From an uncultured Desulfobacterales bacterium (GTDB lineage: Bacteria > Desulfobacterota > Desulfobacteria > Desulfobacterales > UBA11574), in the NCBI GenBank assembly GCA_937998305.1, contig CALLDL010000148.1:8839-72838 (forward strand): a stretch of 64,000 nt of DNA. Reading direction: 5' to 3'. Positions 44,384-60,024 of the stretch are shown here, piece after piece. The notes beneath the pieces were generated by a model. It was not told the DNA's origin. It saw only the letters and a program-made list of their open reading frames with translations, and did not search any database. The position numbers and the translations under genes were made by a program. Each line of letters begins with the position of its first letter. Within the stretch, counting starts at the first letter, position 1.

Positions 44384-47140
44384 TTAAGGACCTGTCGTTG
44401 ATCCGGTATCTGATATCAATTCATGATATAGCTTTTCTGTTTCCTCGCTTAGCGGACAATCTAACTCTTTTTCTATATGGTCTTTACACTTTTCAAATGT
44501 TCTTTTTACCATGGCTTTGTTGCCGGTTTGTGAATAGTATGTCATCAGTAATTGATAAATATCCTCGGTGTATTTATCCATCGATAGATATTTTTTTACA
44601 TAACCGATACATTTCTTATAACTTTTTTTCACATGATAGTATTTAATGATTTCCTCCAGCAATTGAAGGTGCTGGTCCTTAAACCTTTCCCTTTCTTCAT
44701 CACACCATTGAACATAAAGATCCTCTTCGAGAAAGTCGCCCCGATAAATCGCTTCGGCCTTCAAAAGATGATCGATTGATTCTTCCGAATCTTTACTTTT
44801 TTTGGCAAGTTTCAATTCTTTTTTGAAATTATCAATATCCACATATCCTTCATCTCCAATATCGATATGATACGAACTTCCGGAGCGTAAGATATATGCA
44901 GAAGGAGTCCCTCTGGTTATCTCAGGCTCCAGTGTCTTTCTCATCGATGCAAGAGCGACATGAAAGCGTTTTGCGGTTTTAACCGGGTCATCTTCCGGCC
45001 ATAAAAGTTCCATCAAAACATCTTTTTTCAAATAACCTTTTTGCCTGTGGTAGAGAAGATATTTGAAAATCATTTGGGCTTTCCTGCTTTTCCATTTTTT
45101 ATCATAAATTTCCTGGTCTCCCTGAAACACCCTAAATTTTCCAAACAAATAAACCTTCAAGGACGGTGTTTGTAATTTCAGAATTGCATTTTGACAATCA
45201 ACAGGAGCATCATTGATCTTATGATGGTTGGGATTTGGCAATAATTTAAGAGACCCCACTGTTTTCGGTTCGCTTTTGTTTAAGCGATGCCAGATTTTTG
45301 AAAACGATTCTGCATCTATGTAATCCGAAATAGCTTCCTTATCTTCATCAAAATTTTCAAGCAGTCCAGCCGCTTGTTTATAGAGTTCTATAACAGTTTT
45401 ACAACCCAGTTCGGTTATGAGCTTTGTCTGAAGAAAATCCCGGAAAAGCTGGTGATAGGTATACCATCTATCAGCGTCATCAAAAGAGTTGGTAAACAGA
45501 TGATTCTCTTCGAGATCTTTTAATATGTCCCGTGAATTATGTATATTCAGTAGTTGATCGCAAAATTCAGCGTTCATCCGGGGCAAAATAGACGTTTTGA
45601 TCAAAAATTCTTTTTTCCCGTCAGTCAGCAAATTATAGACATTTTCTTCCAAATAGCTAAATACAAGCTTCTGTGAACCTTTCAGTGTTAACAGAAGTTT
45701 CTCGATCTCGACAGGTCCTTTCCCTTTTAATACATGATAAAAAAGAATTAAACCCGACACCCATCCTTCTGTTTTTTGGCGAAGAATTTCAAGGCTTTCT
45801 TGTTTTAAAAATATATAGAACAGTTGAGAGTAAAGCCGATTAATTTCATCAGTTGTAAAAGAAAGATCCCCTTCTCTTATGTCAACCGTTTGCCTTGCAG
45901 CTCTTAATCGAGACAGCGGCAGATTAACGTCAAACCGACTAATGAGAATCAAATGAACTTCGGGCGGAAAGTGTGTGATTAAAAAGTCCAGGGATAATTT
46001 TATCTCACGGCTGTATTGTATGTTATGATAATCGTCAAGGACAATAATCAGGTCTTTTTTTGCGATGGTTTCCAACTCCTTTAAAAAAACGGTTAGAACC
46101 GCTTCCCGGCTTTGTTTCAAGTTCTGTTTTTTGACCAGCCACCGGCATGTCTCGGCTCCGAATTTAGGAAAATATTTTTGGATGCCGGCGGTCAGATAAC
46201 TCAAAAAAATGATAAAATCCCCGTCCGATGGTTCCAGACGGTACCAAACAGTATTCAAGTTCAAATAGTTGTGGGCCTGAGCGATAAACGTCGTCTTACC
46301 ATATCCTGCTCCCGCGATGACGGTGGTAAGTCTTTTTTGAGGGATCTCGGCAAACAAGGGATGTAGTCTTTCTCTGGTAACGGTATCAGCTGCTTGAGGG
46401 GCAAGAAGTTTTGAACTCAATATATTGAGGCGACGATATTTACCAATTTTCAGCAGGTTAGGCTTTAGCTCAAAAAGAAACAAAAACACTGCACCATTGA
46501 GGATAAGCAGGCCCATTGCGCCAATAGTGGTTATCGGTCGCGCTTTTCCCAAATTTCTTGGAGACTTGGGGTCCAGGCTCGTAACCTTTAGATTGTCCGC
46601 AAAAGCCTCGGTCTTTCTTCCGATTGCCAGGTAAGATTTGGCCCTCGTTCTATAAGCGTCGGACATGGTTCCAGGATCAGCCCAAATCTCGATAGCTTTG
46701 GTGGAATCACGTATGGCGTCATTATATCTGTCGATCAACCGATACGCTTCGGCACGATCGGCGTATGCATCGGCACAATTCGGTTTCAACTTGATGGCGT
46801 GGGTAAAATTGTCGATGGCCTGATAGTAGATACGGCTTCTTAAAAAGCCCAGTCCCAACATCCGAAAATCTTCGGCTTTTGCCGGCGCAAGTTCAATATA
46901 TCTTTCAAAATCCTGGATGACTGCGTCGTATCTTTCCTGAAAATAATAAAGCAATCCTCGCTTTTCATAGGCTTCGACCAACGCTGGATTCAGCTTCAAG
47001 GCTTCGGTGAAGTACTCTATTTTCTTTGAGGTCATGGTGCTTGAAAGACCAAGATTATAATACTTCATGGCCTCCATATCTTGGGCCTGAGCAGCCACCA
47101 GACCAATGAACATCAAAAAGAAAAACGTCATTTTTTTCAT
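44384..47140 (-). CDS. membrane-anchored TPR / STAND P-loop NTPase / SARP (wHTH + BTAD) transcriptional regulator
   Basis: 918 aa. Signal peptide MKKMTFFFLMFIGLVAAQAQ, about 180 aa of TPRs, TM helix ITTIGAMGLLILNGAVFLFLF and P-loop TTVIAGAGYGKTT. The C-terminus has a winged helix (LKVYLFGKFRVFQGDQEI...ELLWPEDD...FHVALASMRKTLEP) followed by a BTAD-like helical domain. Confidence 0.8.
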   Translation of the reverse strand: MKKMTFFFLMFIGLVAAQAQDMEAMKYYNLGLSSTMTSKKIEYFTEALKLNPALVEAYEKRGLLYYFQERYDAVIQDFERYIELAPAKAEDFRMLGLGFLRSRIYYQAIDNFTHAIKLKPNCADAYADRAEAYRLIDRYNDAIRDSTKAIEIWADPGTMSDAYRTRAKSYLAIGRKTEAFADNLKVTSLDPKSPRNLGKARPITTIGAMGLLILNGAVFLFLFELKPNLLKIGKYRRLNILSSKLLAPQAADTVTRERLHPLFAEIPQKRLTTVIAGAGYGKTTFIAQAHNYLNLNTVWYRLEPSDGDFIIFLSYLTAGIQKYFPKFGAETCRWLVKKQNLKQSREAVLTVFLKELETIAKKDLIIVLDDYHNIQYSREIKLSLDFLITHFPPEVHLILISRFDVNLPLSRLRAARQTVDIREGDLSFTTDEINRLYSQLFYIFLKQESLEILRQKTEGWVSGLILFYHVLKGKGPVEIEKLLLTLKGSQKLVFSYLEENVYNLLTDGKKEFLIKTSILPRMNAEFCDQLLNIHNSRDILKDLEENHLFTNSFDDADRWYTYHQLFRDFLQTKLITELGCKTVIELYKQAAGLLENFDEDKEAISDYIDAESFSKIWHRLNKSEPKTVGSLKLLPNPNHHKINDAPVDCQNAILKLQTPSLKVYLFGKFRVFQGDQEIYDKKWKSRKAQMIFKYLLYHRQKGYLKKDVLMELLWPEDDPVKTAKRFHVALASMRKTLEPEITRGTPSAYILRSGSSYHIDIGDEGYVDIDNFKKELKLAKKSKDSEESIDHLLKAEAIYRGDFLEEDLYVQWCDEERERFKDQHLQLLEEIIKYYHVKKSYKKCIGYVKKYLSMDKYTEDIYQLLMTYYSQTGNKAMVKRTFEKCKDHIEKELDCPLSEETEKLYHELISDTGSTTGP

Positions 47141-48106: not shown

Positions 48107-49636
48107 TTAAAAAGGAAAACCCTTGTTGGACTTCTCTGCCGGCTGCACAGTTGAAGCAGACGGCACATATTTTTGTGCTTTTGAATGAACAATTTTCGAT
48201 GTTACTGTAATCGCCTTTGGCTTGGTAGGGCAAGCGTGCTCGCAGGCACCGCAGCCGATGCAATAATCAAGGTCGATTTCCGGGAATAAGACAAGCCCCT
48301 TTTCCACCGGAAAAATTGCATGGGTAGGACAGGCTTCGCCGCAGGCGCCGCAATGCTTTTTTTTAACATACACGATACATTTCGCCTTATTCAATGATAC
48401 GGTGCCGATTTGGGTCAGTTTCTTTTCTTGTAACAAAAGAGGGGCTATGGCACCGGTGGGGCAGACCTGGCCGCATGCGTTGCAATCAAAATCGCAATGA
48501 CCTTGCAGATAATTGAGCTTGGGCCGCATTATGCCGCAAACACCATATTCTAAATAGGCCGGTACCATTACATTGGTCGTGCAGACGCTCACACAGAGAT
48601 GACAAGCCGTGCAGTGTTGCATAAAATGTGCAGTGCTATTTGATCCTGGTGGTATAATCGGTATCTGTCTGCGTTGCATAGCTTCAAGGGGTGATAAGCG
48701 GATAGGAAACAACGCTGCCAAAAACGTCCCACTAACCGCCGCCGTACTAACCAGAAAGCTTCTTTTAGAAGGTACCCACCGACCCCAAGAGAGGATCGCA
48801 AGTTGTGTCTGATAGTTCAGAGCCGTCTTTTGGCAGGCATCTATGCAATTAAAGCAGGCCACGCAACGACTGGGGTCGATCTCCAACCTATCTATATCGA
48901 TACACCCCGCCTTGCAAACACCTTCACACGATCGGCACGATCGGCATTTTTTTTTGTCGATGACAAATCGAAAAAGAGAAAAGCGGGACACTATGCCCAA
49001 AAGTGCCCCCACCGGGCAGATCGTATTGCAATATGCGCGCCCGGAAATGATTGAAAATGCCAGGACGATGCCAAACGATCCAATGGATACTGTCAGAATG
49101 GAAAAGGGGATATAGTGCTGCTTTCTGACCATCAGGGCATAAATATCGAATTGTTCAAACACATTGACCATCATGTTATTGATCCAAAGAACAAGCGATT
49201 TGAATGGATGGGCTGCGATTCTCCCAAAAAGGCTGTAAGGGTCGAGCAGGTTGACCAAAACAAACGATCCGAGAATAGCGGTGACAACTGTCAGGACCAG
49301 CAAACAATACGGGACCAGGCGATACGATCGTTGAAAAGCGTGCCTTTTTCGAGAGCCTCTGAAAATCCTGATAAAAATATCCTGAAGGATTCCCAAGGGA
49401 CAGAGAAAGGAACAGTAAAACCGACCAAAGATAAAGCTTGCCAGAAGGAGAAGTAAGAAACCAAGACCGAGCAAATGACCCCGGCTGTGTATAAACTGCA
49501 ATAAGGACGGTGTGAATTGAAAATACAGCAACGTGTTGGACAGTGTTGTCGATATCTTTTCATCTCCCTGAAATGCCAGCACAAACAGTATGAACACAGT
49601 GGTAGAGATCGTAATACGAAGCTTTTTGAGATTCAA
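48107..49636 (-). CDS. NapH/NosR-like integral membrane polyferredoxin (multiple 4Fe-4S)
   Basis: 509 aa. TM helices with GRFYCSFLCPLG and RAYCNTICPVG motifs, plus several CxxCxxCxxxC(P) clusters (CRSCRSCEGVC, CVACFNCIDAC, CTACHLCVSVC, CNACGQVCP, CGACGEACP, CIGCGACEHACP). Confidence 0.8.
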   Translation of the reverse strand: MNLKKLRITISTTVFILFVLAFQGDEKISTTLSNTLLYFQFTPSLLQFIHSRGHLLGLGFLLLLLASFIFGRFYCSFLCPLGILQDIFIRIFRGSRKRHAFQRSYRLVPYCLLVLTVVTAILGSFVLVNLLDPYSLFGRIAAHPFKSLVLWINNMMVNVFEQFDIYALMVRKQHYIPFSILTVSIGSFGIVLAFSIISGRAYCNTICPVGALLGIVSRFSLFRFVIDKKKCRSCRSCEGVCKAGCIDIDRLEIDPSRCVACFNCIDACQKTALNYQTQLAILSWGRWVPSKRSFLVSTAAVSGTFLAALFPIRLSPLEAMQRRQIPIIPPGSNSTAHFMQHCTACHLCVSVCTTNVMVPAYLEYGVCGIMRPKLNYLQGHCDFDCNACGQVCPTGAIAPLLLQEKKLTQIGTVSLNKAKCIVYVKKKHCGACGEACPTHAIFPVEKGLVLFPEIDLDYCIGCGACEHACPTKPKAITVTSKIVHSKAQKYVPSASTVQPAEKSNKGFPF

Positions 49637-49641
49637 TGCAT

Positions 49642-50607
49642 CTACCCGCCTATAACATGTCTTCGGATATTCAACTCATTAAGATTCATATTGCCGATAT
49701 TTAGATCGTGTCCCAGTTGGATGTATCGGACTTTTTCCGGTTCCATGCCGTACACCTTAGAGGCCGCAGCATCCACCGCCACAATGTCGTTGGATACCAG
49801 CAATGTTTTCTTAAGGGCCACATTTTCCGGAGTGCTTCCCCGGGGACCGAAGCGCTGCATGACCCGATAGGCATCCACGATGTTCAGGTCGGGCTTTTTG
49901 AACAGGCAGAAATCGGCAATGGATTGTTCCAGATCTAAAGAATGATACTTCATTCGATCCCAGACAACGCCCATCAGGTTTTTCATGGCAATACTCTGAT
50001 AGGTGTAGTGATGGTTTTTCAGTATGGGAACATTGATGAATACATCGGCTTCCAGAACCAATTCATGTACCTCGGTAGAGACCAGCGCCTTGGCACCGGG
50101 TATGGTCACCTTCTGGTAGTATTTTTCATTATCACCCGGTGCCACCAGCGCACCCGCAGATTTGGCAGCTTCTCCAATGCCGCTCTCTTTATAGCATTTT
50201 TGTGCCATGCCGTATGAGCTCGAGGCCACGTTATCGAAAACATAGACCTTTTTTGCGCCTGCCCCAAAGCAATGCGCTACGATGGATTTGACCAGCAGCG
50301 GATTGGTCGTGGCGCCGATTTCAGGTTTCCTGGCAAAGCTGATATTGGGTTTGACAAGCACGGTTTGTCCTTTTTTCACGAACTTTTTCATGCCGCCCAT
50401 CATAAAGATGGCCTGATTGAACATGGCATCGGGCTCACCGTTTTTAACAGCCACAAGGTCCGGTGTCCCGGAGGACGCAGCCTTGGCAAATAGTATCTCT
50501 GGCGTGCCCCAGAGAAATGAGCCACCCACGGCAACCCCGGTGGCCAGGCTTTTTTTCAGAAATTCACGCCTTTCTTTGCTGTTTAGTTTATTCATAATAA
50601 CCGGCAC
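49642..50607 (-). CDS. DUF362 domain protein with twin-arginine signal peptide
   Basis: 321 aa. Tat motif SKERREFLKKSLATGVAVGG and DUF362 core QTVLVKPNISFARKPEIGATTNPLLV. Confidence 0.75.
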   Translation of the reverse strand: MPVIMNKLNSKERREFLKKSLATGVAVGGSFLWGTPEILFAKAASSGTPDLVAVKNGEPDAMFNQAIFMMGGMKKFVKKGQTVLVKPNISFARKPEIGATTNPLLVKSIVAHCFGAGAKKVYVFDNVASSSYGMAQKCYKESGIGEAAKSAGALVAPGDNEKYYQKVTIPGAKALVSTEVHELVLEADVFINVPILKNHHYTYQSIAMKNLMGVVWDRMKYHSLDLEQSIADFCLFKKPDLNIVDAYRVMQRFGPRGSTPENVALKKTLLVSNDIVAVDAAASKVYGMEPEKVRYIQLGHDLNIGNMNLNELNIRRHVIGG

Positions 50608-51064
50608 AAAGGATCGCTTTCTCTCCAGGTATCTTAAGGAAGTAGGTAATTTTTAATTTGGGTACGTCAGCTCCGGAAGGCCGATAGTAGTACTGTACCC
50701 ATCCCTTCTTTTTGGTTTTAATCTCTTCAAGAACCTTAGTAAAAGGCTGCTTGCCATCGGCATCTTTATAATTTTTCATGGGAAAACCGATAAATCTGGG
50801 GATAGGATGCGCCAGCAACTTGCCCATATCATCATCCATGCAAAAAACATAAGAGTCCTTCCATTTATATGGGCCGTTCGTATCCTTGAATTTTTCAAGA
50901 GCGGGCTGTATTCCTATTTTCTTAACCAATTTTGCGGCTTCCTCGACTTTTGCCACACATTCCTCTTTGGTGGCCCCCTCTTGCGCAAAACACGGGTTTA
51001 CAAAAGAAAAGACCGCGAGTATCGACAGCATCGAACCCAGAACTTTAATGAACTTTTTCATCAT
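50588..51064 (-). CDS. secreted single-Cache (sCache_2-like) domain protein with no output domain
   Basis: ATG 51064/51061 follows GGGAGGA. Signal peptide MMKKFIKVLGSMLSILAVFSFVNPCFAQ. Cache-like pattern YVFCMDDDMGKLLAHP...GWVQYYYRPSG...KITYFLKIPGEKAILCAGYY. The track start at 51139 is rejected. Confidence 0.65.
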   Translation of the reverse strand: MMKKFIKVLGSMLSILAVFSFVNPCFAQEGATKEECVAKVEEAAKLVKKIGIQPALEKFKDTNGPYKWKDSYVFCMDDDMGKLLAHPIPRFIGFPMKNYKDADGKQPFTKVLEEIKTKKKGWVQYYYRPSGADVPKLKITYFLKIPGEKAILCAGYYE

Positions 51065-51136
51065 ATCCTCCCTATTTTGTTTACGATCAATTGAAGTTTC
51101 ATATTTGATAACATTTGATACCTTTATATAGCCGTT

Positions 51137-51165
51137 CAACTAACTCAGAACTAAATTTGAACTAA
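51137..51165 (-). promoter_or_regulatory. heptamer direct-repeat array a (3 x TTAGTTC/G at 11-bp phasing), candidate SARP-type activator site
   Basis: The gene strand reads TTAGTTC aaat TTAGTTC tgag TTAGTTG, then aacggc, then TATATA (51130-51125). Lies about 70 nt upstream of the sCache gene start. Confidence 0.6.
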
Positions 51166-52164: not shown

Positions 52165-53442
52165 CTACTTGACACGGGCATATGCAGGTCTTTTCGTAAT
52201 AAACGCCAGTACAATGGCCACCATAAGGAGTGCTGCCGACAAATAAAAGGCCATGTTGAAACTCCCGGTTGCGTCCCTGATCGTACCGGCAAGTCTTGGC
52301 ATGAACGCTCCAAATCCCCATCCCAGAAACACCAGTCCGTAATTGAACCCCAGGTTCTTGGGACCGTAAAAATCTGCCGTATAAGACGGCATCAACGCCA
52401 ATCCGCCGCCATACTGCCAATAACCGACTCCGGCCAGCAAGAAGAGTAAAAATACACTCTTAGTCGAAATGGCATAGGGAATCAGAAGCATGGCCAAAGC
52501 GGACACACCGCAATTCAGCATATAGGCTTTGTCCCTGCCGAGGATGTCCGAGTATTTGCCAGTACCCACTCGACCGGCTGCATTGACCAGACCGCCGTAG
52601 GAGGCAAGTATCCAGCCGGCCACCAGACCGGTCGCAGCCTTATTCAACAAGCCAGCTGCATTGGTGATGATAAGAATGCCGGACTGGGTACTGAGGATAA
52701 ACATGGCAACCAAGGCATAAAACTGCCAGGTCTTGGTCATCTCACCGGCAGTCCAGTCATTTTGCGTTGCGACCGGTGCCCCAGATTTATCTTGCTCCGA
52801 TTTTACCGGCGCTGGTTCGGGAACATACCCTTCAGGAGGCCAGGCAAGGACCTGGGCGGCAGCACAGATCACGATAAGATACGCAATGCCCAGAACATAG
52901 AAACTGGCCGAAAGGCCCCAGCCGTCAATAATCCATTTTGCCAACGGCGAGACATAAAGTGCCGCACCGCCGTATCCTGCCACAACCAAACCGGCAACCA
53001 GTCCCCGTTTATGGGGGCCAAACCATTTCAAAGCTGCCGGAGTTGGGGCTGCATAGCCGATTCCCATACCAATGCCGCCCCCGATCCCATAACCGATTAT
53101 CAGACCGGTATAACTTTTCATCATGCCGGCTATGATCAGTCCGAGCCCGATGGCGATACCCCCGATACTGGCCGCAATGGTCGGCCCATATTTGTCTTGT
53201 ATCTTCCCGCCGGGAATCATTAACAAGGCAAAAACTAACATACAAAGCGTTACCGGGGAGGATGCCTGGGCGTGTTTTAGTACTTCCCATCCCTGATTAA
53301 TCGGAAGTTCAATGAATTTAGGATCAACAATTCTGACTTTCCATACGCTCCAGGCATATAAGACACCCAGGCATAAATTGATGGTCGTTCCTGCAAATAC
53401 AACTCGCCACGCCTTTGCCGGCGTTTTGCTTACTGTATTCAT
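52165..53442 (-). CDS. MFS transporter, oxalate/formate antiporter (OFA)-like
   Basis: 425 aa with 12 predicted TM helices. N-terminal WRVVFAGTTINLCLGVLYAWSVW is typical of the OFA family. RBS TAGGAGGT. Confidence 0.85.
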   Translation of the reverse strand: MNTVSKTPAKAWRVVFAGTTINLCLGVLYAWSVWKVRIVDPKFIELPINQGWEVLKHAQASSPVTLCMLVFALLMIPGGKIQDKYGPTIAASIGGIAIGLGLIIAGMMKSYTGLIIGYGIGGGIGMGIGYAAPTPAALKWFGPHKRGLVAGLVVAGYGGAALYVSPLAKWIIDGWGLSASFYVLGIAYLIVICAAAQVLAWPPEGYVPEPAPVKSEQDKSGAPVATQNDWTAGEMTKTWQFYALVAMFILSTQSGILIITNAAGLLNKAATGLVAGWILASYGGLVNAAGRVGTGKYSDILGRDKAYMLNCGVSALAMLLIPYAISTKSVFLLFLLAGVGYWQYGGGLALMPSYTADFYGPKNLGFNYGLVFLGWGFGAFMPRLAGTIRDATGSFNMAFYLSAALLMVAIVLAFITKRPAYARVK

Positions 53443-53626: not shown

Positions 53627-53655
53627 CAATTAGATCAGAACTAATTTCCGACTAA
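53627..53655 (-). promoter_or_regulatory. heptamer direct-repeat array b
   Basis: The gene strand reads TTAGTCG gaaa TTAGTTC tgat CTAATTG, then ccatcc, then TATAAA (53620-53615). Lies upstream of the MFS gene, with a leader of about 170 nt. Confidence 0.55.
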
Positions 53656-59995: not shown

Positions 59996-60024
59996 TGATT
60001 AATTTAGAACTAATTGGGGACTAA
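59996..60024 (-). promoter_or_regulatory. heptamer direct-repeat array c
   Basis: The gene strand reads TTAGTCC ccaa TTAGTTC taaa TTAATCA, followed by an AT-rich CGTAAAAAA. Lies about 55 nt upstream of the DUF2917-like gene start. Confidence 0.5.

Follow-up and report, generated by a model that had tools for sequence, protein, structure and literature searches.

A DUF362 protein with a LarA-like fold and a predicted Tat leader, and its polyferredoxin partner, in an operon of an uncultured Desulfobacterales bacterium

What is built from a secreted Cache protein, a DUF362 protein and a polyferredoxin (PFD) whose genes lie one behind the other on the same strand? The question is raised by an operon in the 64,000-nucleotide stretch of DNA analyzed here (the window), which is part of contig CALLDL010000148.1 of an uncultured Desulfobacterales bacterium. 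The initial annotation of the operon suggested a redox enzyme of the periplasm, served by an electron conduit across the membrane and by an accessory protein that binds small molecules, and stated that DUF362 has no established function; a literature search turned up none either. We propose that the three genes form one operon, expressed from a heptamer-repeat promoter of the SARP type, which would build a periplasmic redox module with the DUF362 protein as its catalytic subunit. We lean towards this explanation as a whole, including a LarA-like DUF362 enzyme with a cofactor of the nickel-pincer nucleotide (NPN) type. The redox-module architecture taken by itself is quite probable, and for the use of NPN by DUF362 the chances stand about even.

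The three reading frames were confirmed on the minus strand at the positions of the initial annotation, and the features of the locus are collected in Table 1. The first reading frame of the operon scored 52.6 bits against PF17200 (cut-off 25, 6.4e-14) and is thus a member of the sCache_2 family. The best candidate for its start is one of the two ATG codons at 51061 and 51064, which are preceded by the sequence GGGAGGA, and the gene calls in relatives give products of 157 or 158 amino acids too. The leader is of the Sec type and ends with ...FVNPCFA/QEG, and no domain follows C-terminal of the Cache fold, in agreement with the annotation as a secreted single-Cache protein with no output domain. 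The domain is the one found in chemoreceptors and kinases; here, in contrast, the domain is secreted by itself, lacks transmembrane and signalling parts, and is probably coupled in translation to an enzyme gene. The DUF362 gene is likely to start with the ATG at 50595, since the homologues are of 317 amino acids and begin with MNK. With this start the gene overlaps the sCache gene by 8 nucleotides (ATGAATAA); the overlap of the start with the sCache stop implies coupled translation and a fixed stoichiometry. An overlap of 20 nucleotides, as previously given, fits the GTG start only. The gap of 5 nucleotides between the DUF362 stop and the polyferredoxin start was given correctly, and the spacing is identical in relatives.

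Table 1. Positions of the operon, its predicted sites and associated genes. Positions are those of the window unless a locus (L) is named; a slash marks the cleavage site.
Feature	Position	Strand	Basis or remark
Polyferredoxin reading frame, 509 amino acids, TTG start	48107..49636	(-)	Fer4_5 x2 and several Fer4 families (Pfam)
Internal Tat-type motif K291-R292-S-F and helix 5 (residues 294-312)	48701..48766	(-)	Comparison of 70 homologues, hydropathy
DUF362 reading frame	49642-50607 (GTG start); 49642..50595 from likely ATG	(-)	PF04015
His195...Lys205...His218 codons, proposed cofactor site	49942..50013	(-)	hhalign mapping, 5HUQ numbering checked
Putative twin-arginine signal peptide, residues 1-41 (ERREFLKK, h-region, AKA/A)	50473..50595	(-)	Cleavage site by inspection
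sCache_2 reading frame	50588-51139	(-)	PF17200 match; gene proper 50588..51064
Stand-alone sCache_2 protein, predicted secreted, 157-158 amino acids	50588..51064	(-)	Shine-Dalgarno sequence and ATG; lineage-specific accessory
Promoter array a, TTAGTTC-N4-TTAGTTC-N4-TTAGTTG, three heptamers, 11-bp phase	51137..51165	(-)	Exact match, 0.01 chance expectation
TPR-STAND-BTAD (SARP) regulator, downstream of operon	44384..47140	(-)	BTAD 3.6e-17 and TPR; MalT-like NOD region
Major facilitator superfamily (MFS) transporter, L-lactate (SfMCT) family	52165..53442	(-)	NF049980, 370 bits, cut-off 320 (equivalog)
c2 genes	L025:5389-5904; also L013:3601-4104, L047:5336-5848; 18 other loci besides L025 in all	(-) for L025	Upstream of DUF362-PFD

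A scan of one genome per species revealed at least 592 loci that encode relatives, of which the best 80 were kept for neighbourhood counts. In 77 of these a PFD homologue of about 520 amino acids is encoded directly after DUF362 on the same strand, and two of the other three lie at the end of a contig. The hosts of the 80 loci belong to at least eight phyla (Desulfobacterota, Bacteroidota, Ignavibacteriota, Chlorobiota, Spirochaetota, Lentisphaerota, Pseudomonadota and Verrucomicrobiota) at 47-65% identity; relatives were found in 203 of the 301 Desulfobacterota genomes sampled. None of the 80 wider loci (0/80) contains a Cache gene. An sCache gene directly upstream of DUF362 was present in a contig of the same genus (L133), in the isolate Desulfospira joergensenii (L134) and in a 63%-identical locus (L136). 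D. joergensenii keeps the full trio but not the neighbouring regulator, TPR, MFS and M50-like genes. The synteny of the trio is therefore upheld by this isolate and two metagenome contigs and that of the pair by 77 of the 80 loci, and only the Cache gene fails as a core member.

Solo secreted sCache proteins form a family present in 30 of 81 Desulfobacterales genomes, with 24 other loci that have no DUF362 gene within 1.5 kb. Because of the 77/80 and 0/80 counts and of these DUF362-free loci, a core subunit role of the Cache protein was ruled out; the core consists of DUF362 and PFD, and Cache is an accessory specific to Desulfobacterales. We suggest that it would act as a ligand-binding accessory of this lineage. 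The solo proteins are of 155-200 amino acids and are encoded in multiple copies, up to five per genome and some in tandem (G036, G384, G418, G405 and others, loci L145-L168). In the window's own genome there is a second, paralogous pair of a Tat-type DUF362 gene (330 amino acids, leader NRRQFLDRL) and a PFD gene (L140, contig C4, approximately 67595-71185), and three further DUF362 genes are present on contigs C87, C121 and C166.

The DUF362 leader reads ERREFLKK-SLATGVAVGGSFLWG-...AKA/A, which fits the consensus for export by the twin-arginine (Tat) route and the motif of Tat substrates. In an alignment of 28 homologues (58-88% identity) R10 is invariant and R9 at least 90% conserved, with the pair counted as conserved in 28/28, and the genome has tatC (250 bits). 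In the AlphaFold 2 model residues 1-42 are disordered, with a predicted local distance difference test score (pLDDT) below 50. The twin-arginine leader claimed for this protein is thus well founded, and the protein is predicted to be exported via Tat. It would fold in the cytoplasm, probably take up its cofactor there, and leave through the Tat pathway.

The partner protein contains two CxxxCP motifs (C75, C203), canonical CxxCxxCxxxC motifs at 231, 258, 342 and 459, and variant four-cysteine motifs at 381 and 420. C231 and C258 are located after helix 4, while C342, C381, C420 and C459 are in the C-terminal part. The total is therefore six motifs of the [4Fe-4S] type, as had been claimed, although only four of them are canonical. 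The NapH models of NCBIfam match residues 158-276 and the NapG model residues 290-481, in both cases far below the cut-off (TIGR02163, 83 bits compared with 213; PRK09476, 56 bits compared with 269). Judged by its sequence the protein is a relative, not an orthologue, of NapH and of NapG. Its description as a NapH-type polyferredoxin holds for one part; more fully, the sequence shows NapH and NapG fused, with a Tat-type motif inside the protein, and so places it most likely in the dual Sec/Tat "PFD" type that has already been described (PMC5449189).

In that work (PMC5449189; Tooke et al. 2017, eLife) helix 5 of the MLMS-1 polyferredoxin, a NapH-NapG fusion, was found to be inserted by Tat, and insertion of the architecture involved both Sec and Tat. 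The PFD of the window matches the dual Sec/Tat architecture, a NapH-like four-helix CxxxCP part joined to a NapG-like four-cluster domain. As in the MLMS-1 protein (Q1NSB0), two CxxxCP motifs and [4Fe-4S] clusters on the predicted cytoplasmic side belong to the N-terminal part, and the C-terminal domain has four clusters. Right before helix 5 there is also a candidate for the twin-arginine-type motif, and helix 5, with positive charge behind it, is probably the counterpart of the weakly hydrophobic helix of that protein. The PFD differs in having KR and six cluster motifs, where RR and seven were reported for MLMS-1; this comparison is one of architecture and not of direct homology. The internal motif precedes helix 5 in 70/70 PFD homologues, the pair at the [RK]R-x-F site being RR in 40, KR in 28 and RK in two. 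The Kyte-Doolittle value of helix 5 is 1.84 and those of helices 2-4 are 2.06-2.38, yet helix 1 has 1.69; an arginine is located two residues past helix 5.

Since the fifth helix of the described architecture is inserted by Tat, the four clusters behind it are expected outside the membrane, and we predict that helix 5 carries the NapG-like domain to the periplasm. Helices 1-4, which form the NapH-like part with its two cytoplasmic [4Fe-4S] clusters, would be inserted by Sec and helix 5 by Tat. The NapG-like domain would then face the periplasm, and electrons could move between the quinone pool or the cytoplasm and DUF362. The term DUF362 does not occur in the main text of PMC5449189, so no DUF362 partner is named there. 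Several details of the PFD family were noted in passing. The C-terminal F-P-F (48107-48118 of the window) is invariant in the 70 homologues and may be a docking motif. Many PFDs of Bacteroidota and Ignavibacteriota (L013, L025, L042, L053 and others) have a short hydrophobic stretch after the internal RR with an AxA-like end (...SKAQQ, ...AQE), and the NapG-like half of such proteins might be cut off by signal peptidase. Genes for signal peptidase I are located just downstream in seven loci.

A similar logic is known from the NapGH quinol dehydrogenase and NapAB of E. coli and Wolinella succinogenes, where a Tat-exported catalytic protein is supplied by NapH and a periplasmic four-cluster NapG. 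There, however, NapG and NapH are separate and the partner is a molybdoenzyme, whereas here the two are fused, the partner is DUF362, and there are no nap genes nearby. The PFD also resembles NosR, the partner of NosZ, and RdhC, that of reductive dehalogenases, in the Fer4_5 core, CxxxCP motifs, cytoplasmic clusters and a gene beside that of a Tat-exported cofactor enzyme; it differs in that a NapG-like domain takes the place of a periplasmic domain that binds flavin mononucleotide, and the NosR model gave only 34 bits with a cut-off of 1000. Proteins of this NapH-family type, the PFD included, may serve to hold a labile metal cofactor in its reduced state. The Tat motif, the synteny of the trio and the 77/80 pairing are all consistent with the annotation of the locus as a periplasmic redox enzyme with a trans-membrane conduit and a small-molecule-binding accessory.

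The next question is what kind of enzyme DUF362 could be. The protein scored 165.2 bits against PF04015 (cut-off 24, 2.6e-48), with residues 83-283 corresponding to positions 1-199 of the 200 in the profile, and belongs to this family; its best NCBIfam match is the cyanobacterial DUF362 family Npun_F2552. DUF362 has served as an outgroup of LarA, and DUF362 and DUF2088 are both placed in Pfam clan CL0471 (PMC11770544). The AlphaFold 2 model (317 amino acids) had a mean pLDDT of 83. In a Foldseek search of the PDB the top 19 matches were all LarA-type nickel-pincer enzymes (E 7e-7 to 4e-5, probability 1.00), with query-normalised TM-scores of 0.40-0.50 over 260-303 columns, which corresponds to the two-domain LarA fold; significant fold matches were limited to NPN enzymes of this type. 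Comparison of the protein and its profile with the PDB sequences gave no match, and the link to LarA is visible by fold search only. A first hhalign run with a profile of 28 DUF362 sequences and a single LarA homologue gave no alignment; with 219 DUF362 and 32 LarA sequences, 207 columns were aligned.

LarA His174 and His108 are catalytic and His200 binds nickel. Lys184 of LarA is the tether of the NPN cofactor (PMC11796402). The most confident stretch of the hhalign alignment equates H195 of DUF362 with His174 and K205 with Lys184, His-x9-Lys being common to both families. Among 225 DUF362 sequences, paralogues included, H195 and K205 are each kept in 224 and H218 in 221. K82, N84, D121, K193, H195, K205, H218, D241 and D275 are essentially invariant in this set, distant and cytoplasmic paralogues included. 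We suggest that DUF362 is a shortened enzyme of the LarA superfamily, in which Lys205 most likely anchors NPN or another cofactor much like it; the catalytic base would be His195, and His218 would be a metal ligand. The LarA-superfamily fold, the conserved His and Lys of the cofactor site and the linkage to lar genes described below all lie outside the initial annotation. An iron-sulphur or cysteine-bound metal site in DUF362 was also considered and is unlikely, because no cysteine is invariant across the 225 sequences.

LarA and the homologous enzymes that racemise or epimerise 2-hydroxy acids (Lar_N PF09861 and LarA_C; 5HUQ, 2YJG, 6D6Z, 9EIA, 9Q3J) thus have the fold and the Pfam clan in common with DUF362, and many DUF362 relatives adjoin lar biosynthesis genes. 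LarA is however a cytoplasmic protein of about 420 amino acids with His108, whereas mature DUF362, with about 275 amino acids, is short of this full length, has a Tat leader and no His108, and its cofactor binding is predicted only. The DUF362 gene gave no Lar_N match at E <= 0.01, whereas other contigs of the genome did. LarA racemises its substrate; as DUF362 is always paired with a membrane polyferredoxin, net electron transfer would be expected here. One of the DUF362 paralogues of the same genome, a cytoplasmic protein of 379 amino acids (L137, C87:1169-1987), contains GHELSGFGGAIK-x15-H, the spacing of LarA His174/Lys184/His200, close to SHFFAGFSGGRK-x15-H of LarA itself, and has a weak Lar_N match (E = 9.8e-5). 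On this sequence evidence it is a bridge between the DUF362 and LarA families.

These residues also bear on a different view of the module, in which DUF362 is a non-catalytic partner of the PFD (structural, chaperone-like or substrate-binding) and the PFD itself reduces an external acceptor. Metal centres are the probable targets of the NapH-family relatives NosR and CcoG, which would suit such a role, as would the lack of an Fe-S motif in DUF362 and the failure of the literature search to find an activity for any DUF362 protein. We consider it very unlikely, in view of some ten polar residues that are invariant across distant paralogues, the cytoplasmic ones included, as is typical of an active site. 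DUF362 moreover has a Tat leader to itself, in the manner of enzymes that carry a cofactor, and its fold is that of an enzyme family.

Does the genomic context point to the cofactor? Clustering of the neighbours in the 80 loci identified larC (12), larB (9), larE (8) and a WbqC-like gene (9) as the commonest identifiable ones. The lar genes score above the NCBIfam cut-offs and are located directly upstream in divergent orientation; at least 12 of the 80 loci adjoin them, the gene order varying and two phyla being represented. Competibacteraceae have larC and larB behind PFD, with no change of strand (DUF362-PFD-larC). The WbqC-like gene belongs to PF08889, a family of unknown function, and takes fourth place in larC-larE-larB operons facing the pair (L043:2497-5868 (-), L078:2422-5800 (-) and similar; nine loci).

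Through the loci 50 genomes carrying the pair, of unknown completeness, were reached. larC was found in 24 and larB in 23 of them, nearly always together. Only six of the 24 larBC-bearing genomes have a LarA homologue, and 18 have none. Among control genomes, DUF362 and larBC(E) are present and LarA is missing in Synechococcus and Haloferax. According to PMC11796402, approximately 15% of genomes, those of cyanobacteria included, produce NPN without having LarA and are therefore expected to contain further NPN proteins that await identification. Co-occurrence of DUF362 and larC within Desulfobacterota was discarded as evidence, since larC is present in 88% of these genomes either way.

Several observations weigh against an NPN enzyme of the LarA type. 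The profile-profile alignment of DUF362 and LarA is weak overall (E = 0.013), and the equivalence of H218 and LarA His200 needs a shift of two residues, H218 being at the edge of a gap. The second catalytic histidine of LarA, His108, is not kept: Tyr135 takes its place in the alignment, next to Cys134. According to the title of PDB entry 9Q3J, one catalytic histidine is all that some LarA-like enzymes have. Of the pair-carrying genomes, 26 of the 50 lack larB and larC, among them Smithellaceae, whose orthologues are placed closest to the DUF362 protein of the window on the tree. Orthologues of 57-62% identity also occur, with no larC, in three Desulfobacterota genomes of 96-100% completeness, and Bacteroides thetaiotaomicron has DUF362 and no larC. 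In the window's own genome (88.5% complete) larC and larE were found and larB was not; a true LarA homologue is present there, so these lar genes need no DUF362 to explain them. Nor is a nicotinamide-type hydride carrier an obvious partner for one-electron Fe-S clusters.

These points could also be explained if DUF362 were a periplasmic redox enzyme fed by the PFD with no involvement of NPN, its invariant His, Lys, His and Asp residues binding another metal or organic cofactor or acting directly in catalysis, and the adjacency to lar genes reflecting co-regulation or a habit of certain lineages. Such an explanation gains from the roughly one half of the pair-carrying genomes without larB and larC, from the intermixing on the tree of orthologues (48-62% identity) with and without lar genes, from the presence of LarC in Desulfobacterota irrespective of DUF362 and from the lack of conservation of His108. 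It is nevertheless rather unlikely in our judgement. The lar genes adjoin the pair in more than one gene order and phylum, 18 genomes have larBC with no LarA to serve, and the tether lysine is invariant and aligns exactly with that of LarA. True LarA homologues are present in four of the genomes that lack lar genes, which means that absence of larBC is no proof of absence of NPN. Clear LarA homologues (E 1e-24 to 1e-62) with no larB or larC detected were noted in G301, G302, G303 and G305 (loci L002, L003, L007 and L010; Smithellaceae and related); such LarA proteins would come as a surprise if the enzyme depends on NPN from the cell's own synthesis.

A further argument came from the divergent slot upstream of the pair, which in 19 of the 80 loci is occupied by a gene (c2) for an unannotated membrane protein of about 170 amino acids with six helices and the motifs YLIEPMR and HT..NAY. 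Searches of Pfam and NCBIfam with the c2 protein gave no match. A likeness to S-components of vitamin-type energy-coupling factor (ECF) transporters was predicted before the fold search. In that search RibU and other ECF S-components then came first for the AlphaFold 2 model (pLDDT 75), with weak E values of 0.3-2.5, probability of about 0.9 and TM-score of about 0.5. Of the 26 pair genomes without lar genes 16 have the c2 gene, for the most part in that upstream slot, whereas it is missing from all 24 that have lar genes (Fisher p = 1.2e-6). This looks like salvage taking the place of synthesis and argues against an enzyme that does without NPN. On the DUF362 tree the c2 and lar states are intermixed; well-supported branches force only two or three changes, and with three supported independent pairs the test is without power. 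Mutual exclusion of c2 and larBC, nominally strong, was thus not taken as established and is kept as a lead, with c2 as a possible cofactor-salvage transporter.

The DUF362-PFD module is a concrete candidate for the unidentified NPN proteins: it is widespread, has the LarA fold and the tether lysine, and lies beside larCEB in many genomes that have no LarA. If DUF362 does use NPN, part of the puzzle of "larBCE without larA" would be explained, NPN chemistry would extend from cytoplasmic racemisation to respiratory-type periplasmic electron transfer in anaerobes, and polyferredoxins of the dual Sec/Tat family would for the first time have a physiological partner. New here are the Desulfobacterales variant with a Cache accessory and a SARP-type promoter, and the count of lar genes against the ECF S-like gene. 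A bolder and clearly tentative version is that the Tat-exported DUF362 proteins are the first NPN enzymes outside the cytoplasm and the first to exchange electrons with an Fe-S chain, that lineages which lack lar genes salvage the cofactor, or a precursor of it, by means of c2, and that the protein of the window is a periplasmic 2-hydroxy-acid:quinone oxidoreductase, to which the secreted Cache protein and the putatively co-regulated lactate-type transporter would point.

How might the operon be controlled, and on what would the enzyme act? A classic SARP promoter consists of direct heptamer repeats in 11-bp phase beside a -10 box. Array a has such repeats, a -10-like box (TATATA) about 6 nucleotides downstream of them, and a BTAD/SARP gene nearby, and so agrees with a promoter of this type. 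Since the layout of the repeats is that of a classic SARP promoter and a TPR-STAND-BTAD regulator is encoded just downstream, it is reasonable to infer that array a is a candidate SARP-activator site, with the neighbouring regulator as its binder. Related arrays are located at 53638-53655 (within array b, 53627-53655) and 60007-60024, with five matches found and 0.5 expected. Array b precedes the MFS gene and the array at 60007-60024 precedes a third gene string; from its array, the MFS gene is probably in the same regulon as the DUF362 operon.

The same arrangement invites another role for sCache, that of a periplasmic ligand sensor of the regulator, which would be membrane-anchored and offer its TPR domain on the outside for docking, so that the heptamer regulon is induced. 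Genes for the regulator and for a TPR paralogue come directly after the operon, on its downstream side, three promoters have a heptamer array, and the solo sCache family is large, with its 24 DUF362-free loci indicating that it is not tied to this enzyme. All this is compatible with the explanation that we prefer. We find the sensor role doubtful all the same, given that in D. joergensenii the Cache gene travels with the enzyme genes and not with the regulator, TPR, MFS and M50-like genes, and that the overlap of stop and start argues for a fixed stoichiometry with DUF362. Characterised sCache_2 members mostly bind small carboxylates, and this general knowledge, together with the lactate-family MFS gene behind a like array, hints at a small organic acid of the 2-hydroxy-acid type, a substrate that would fit LarA chemistry.

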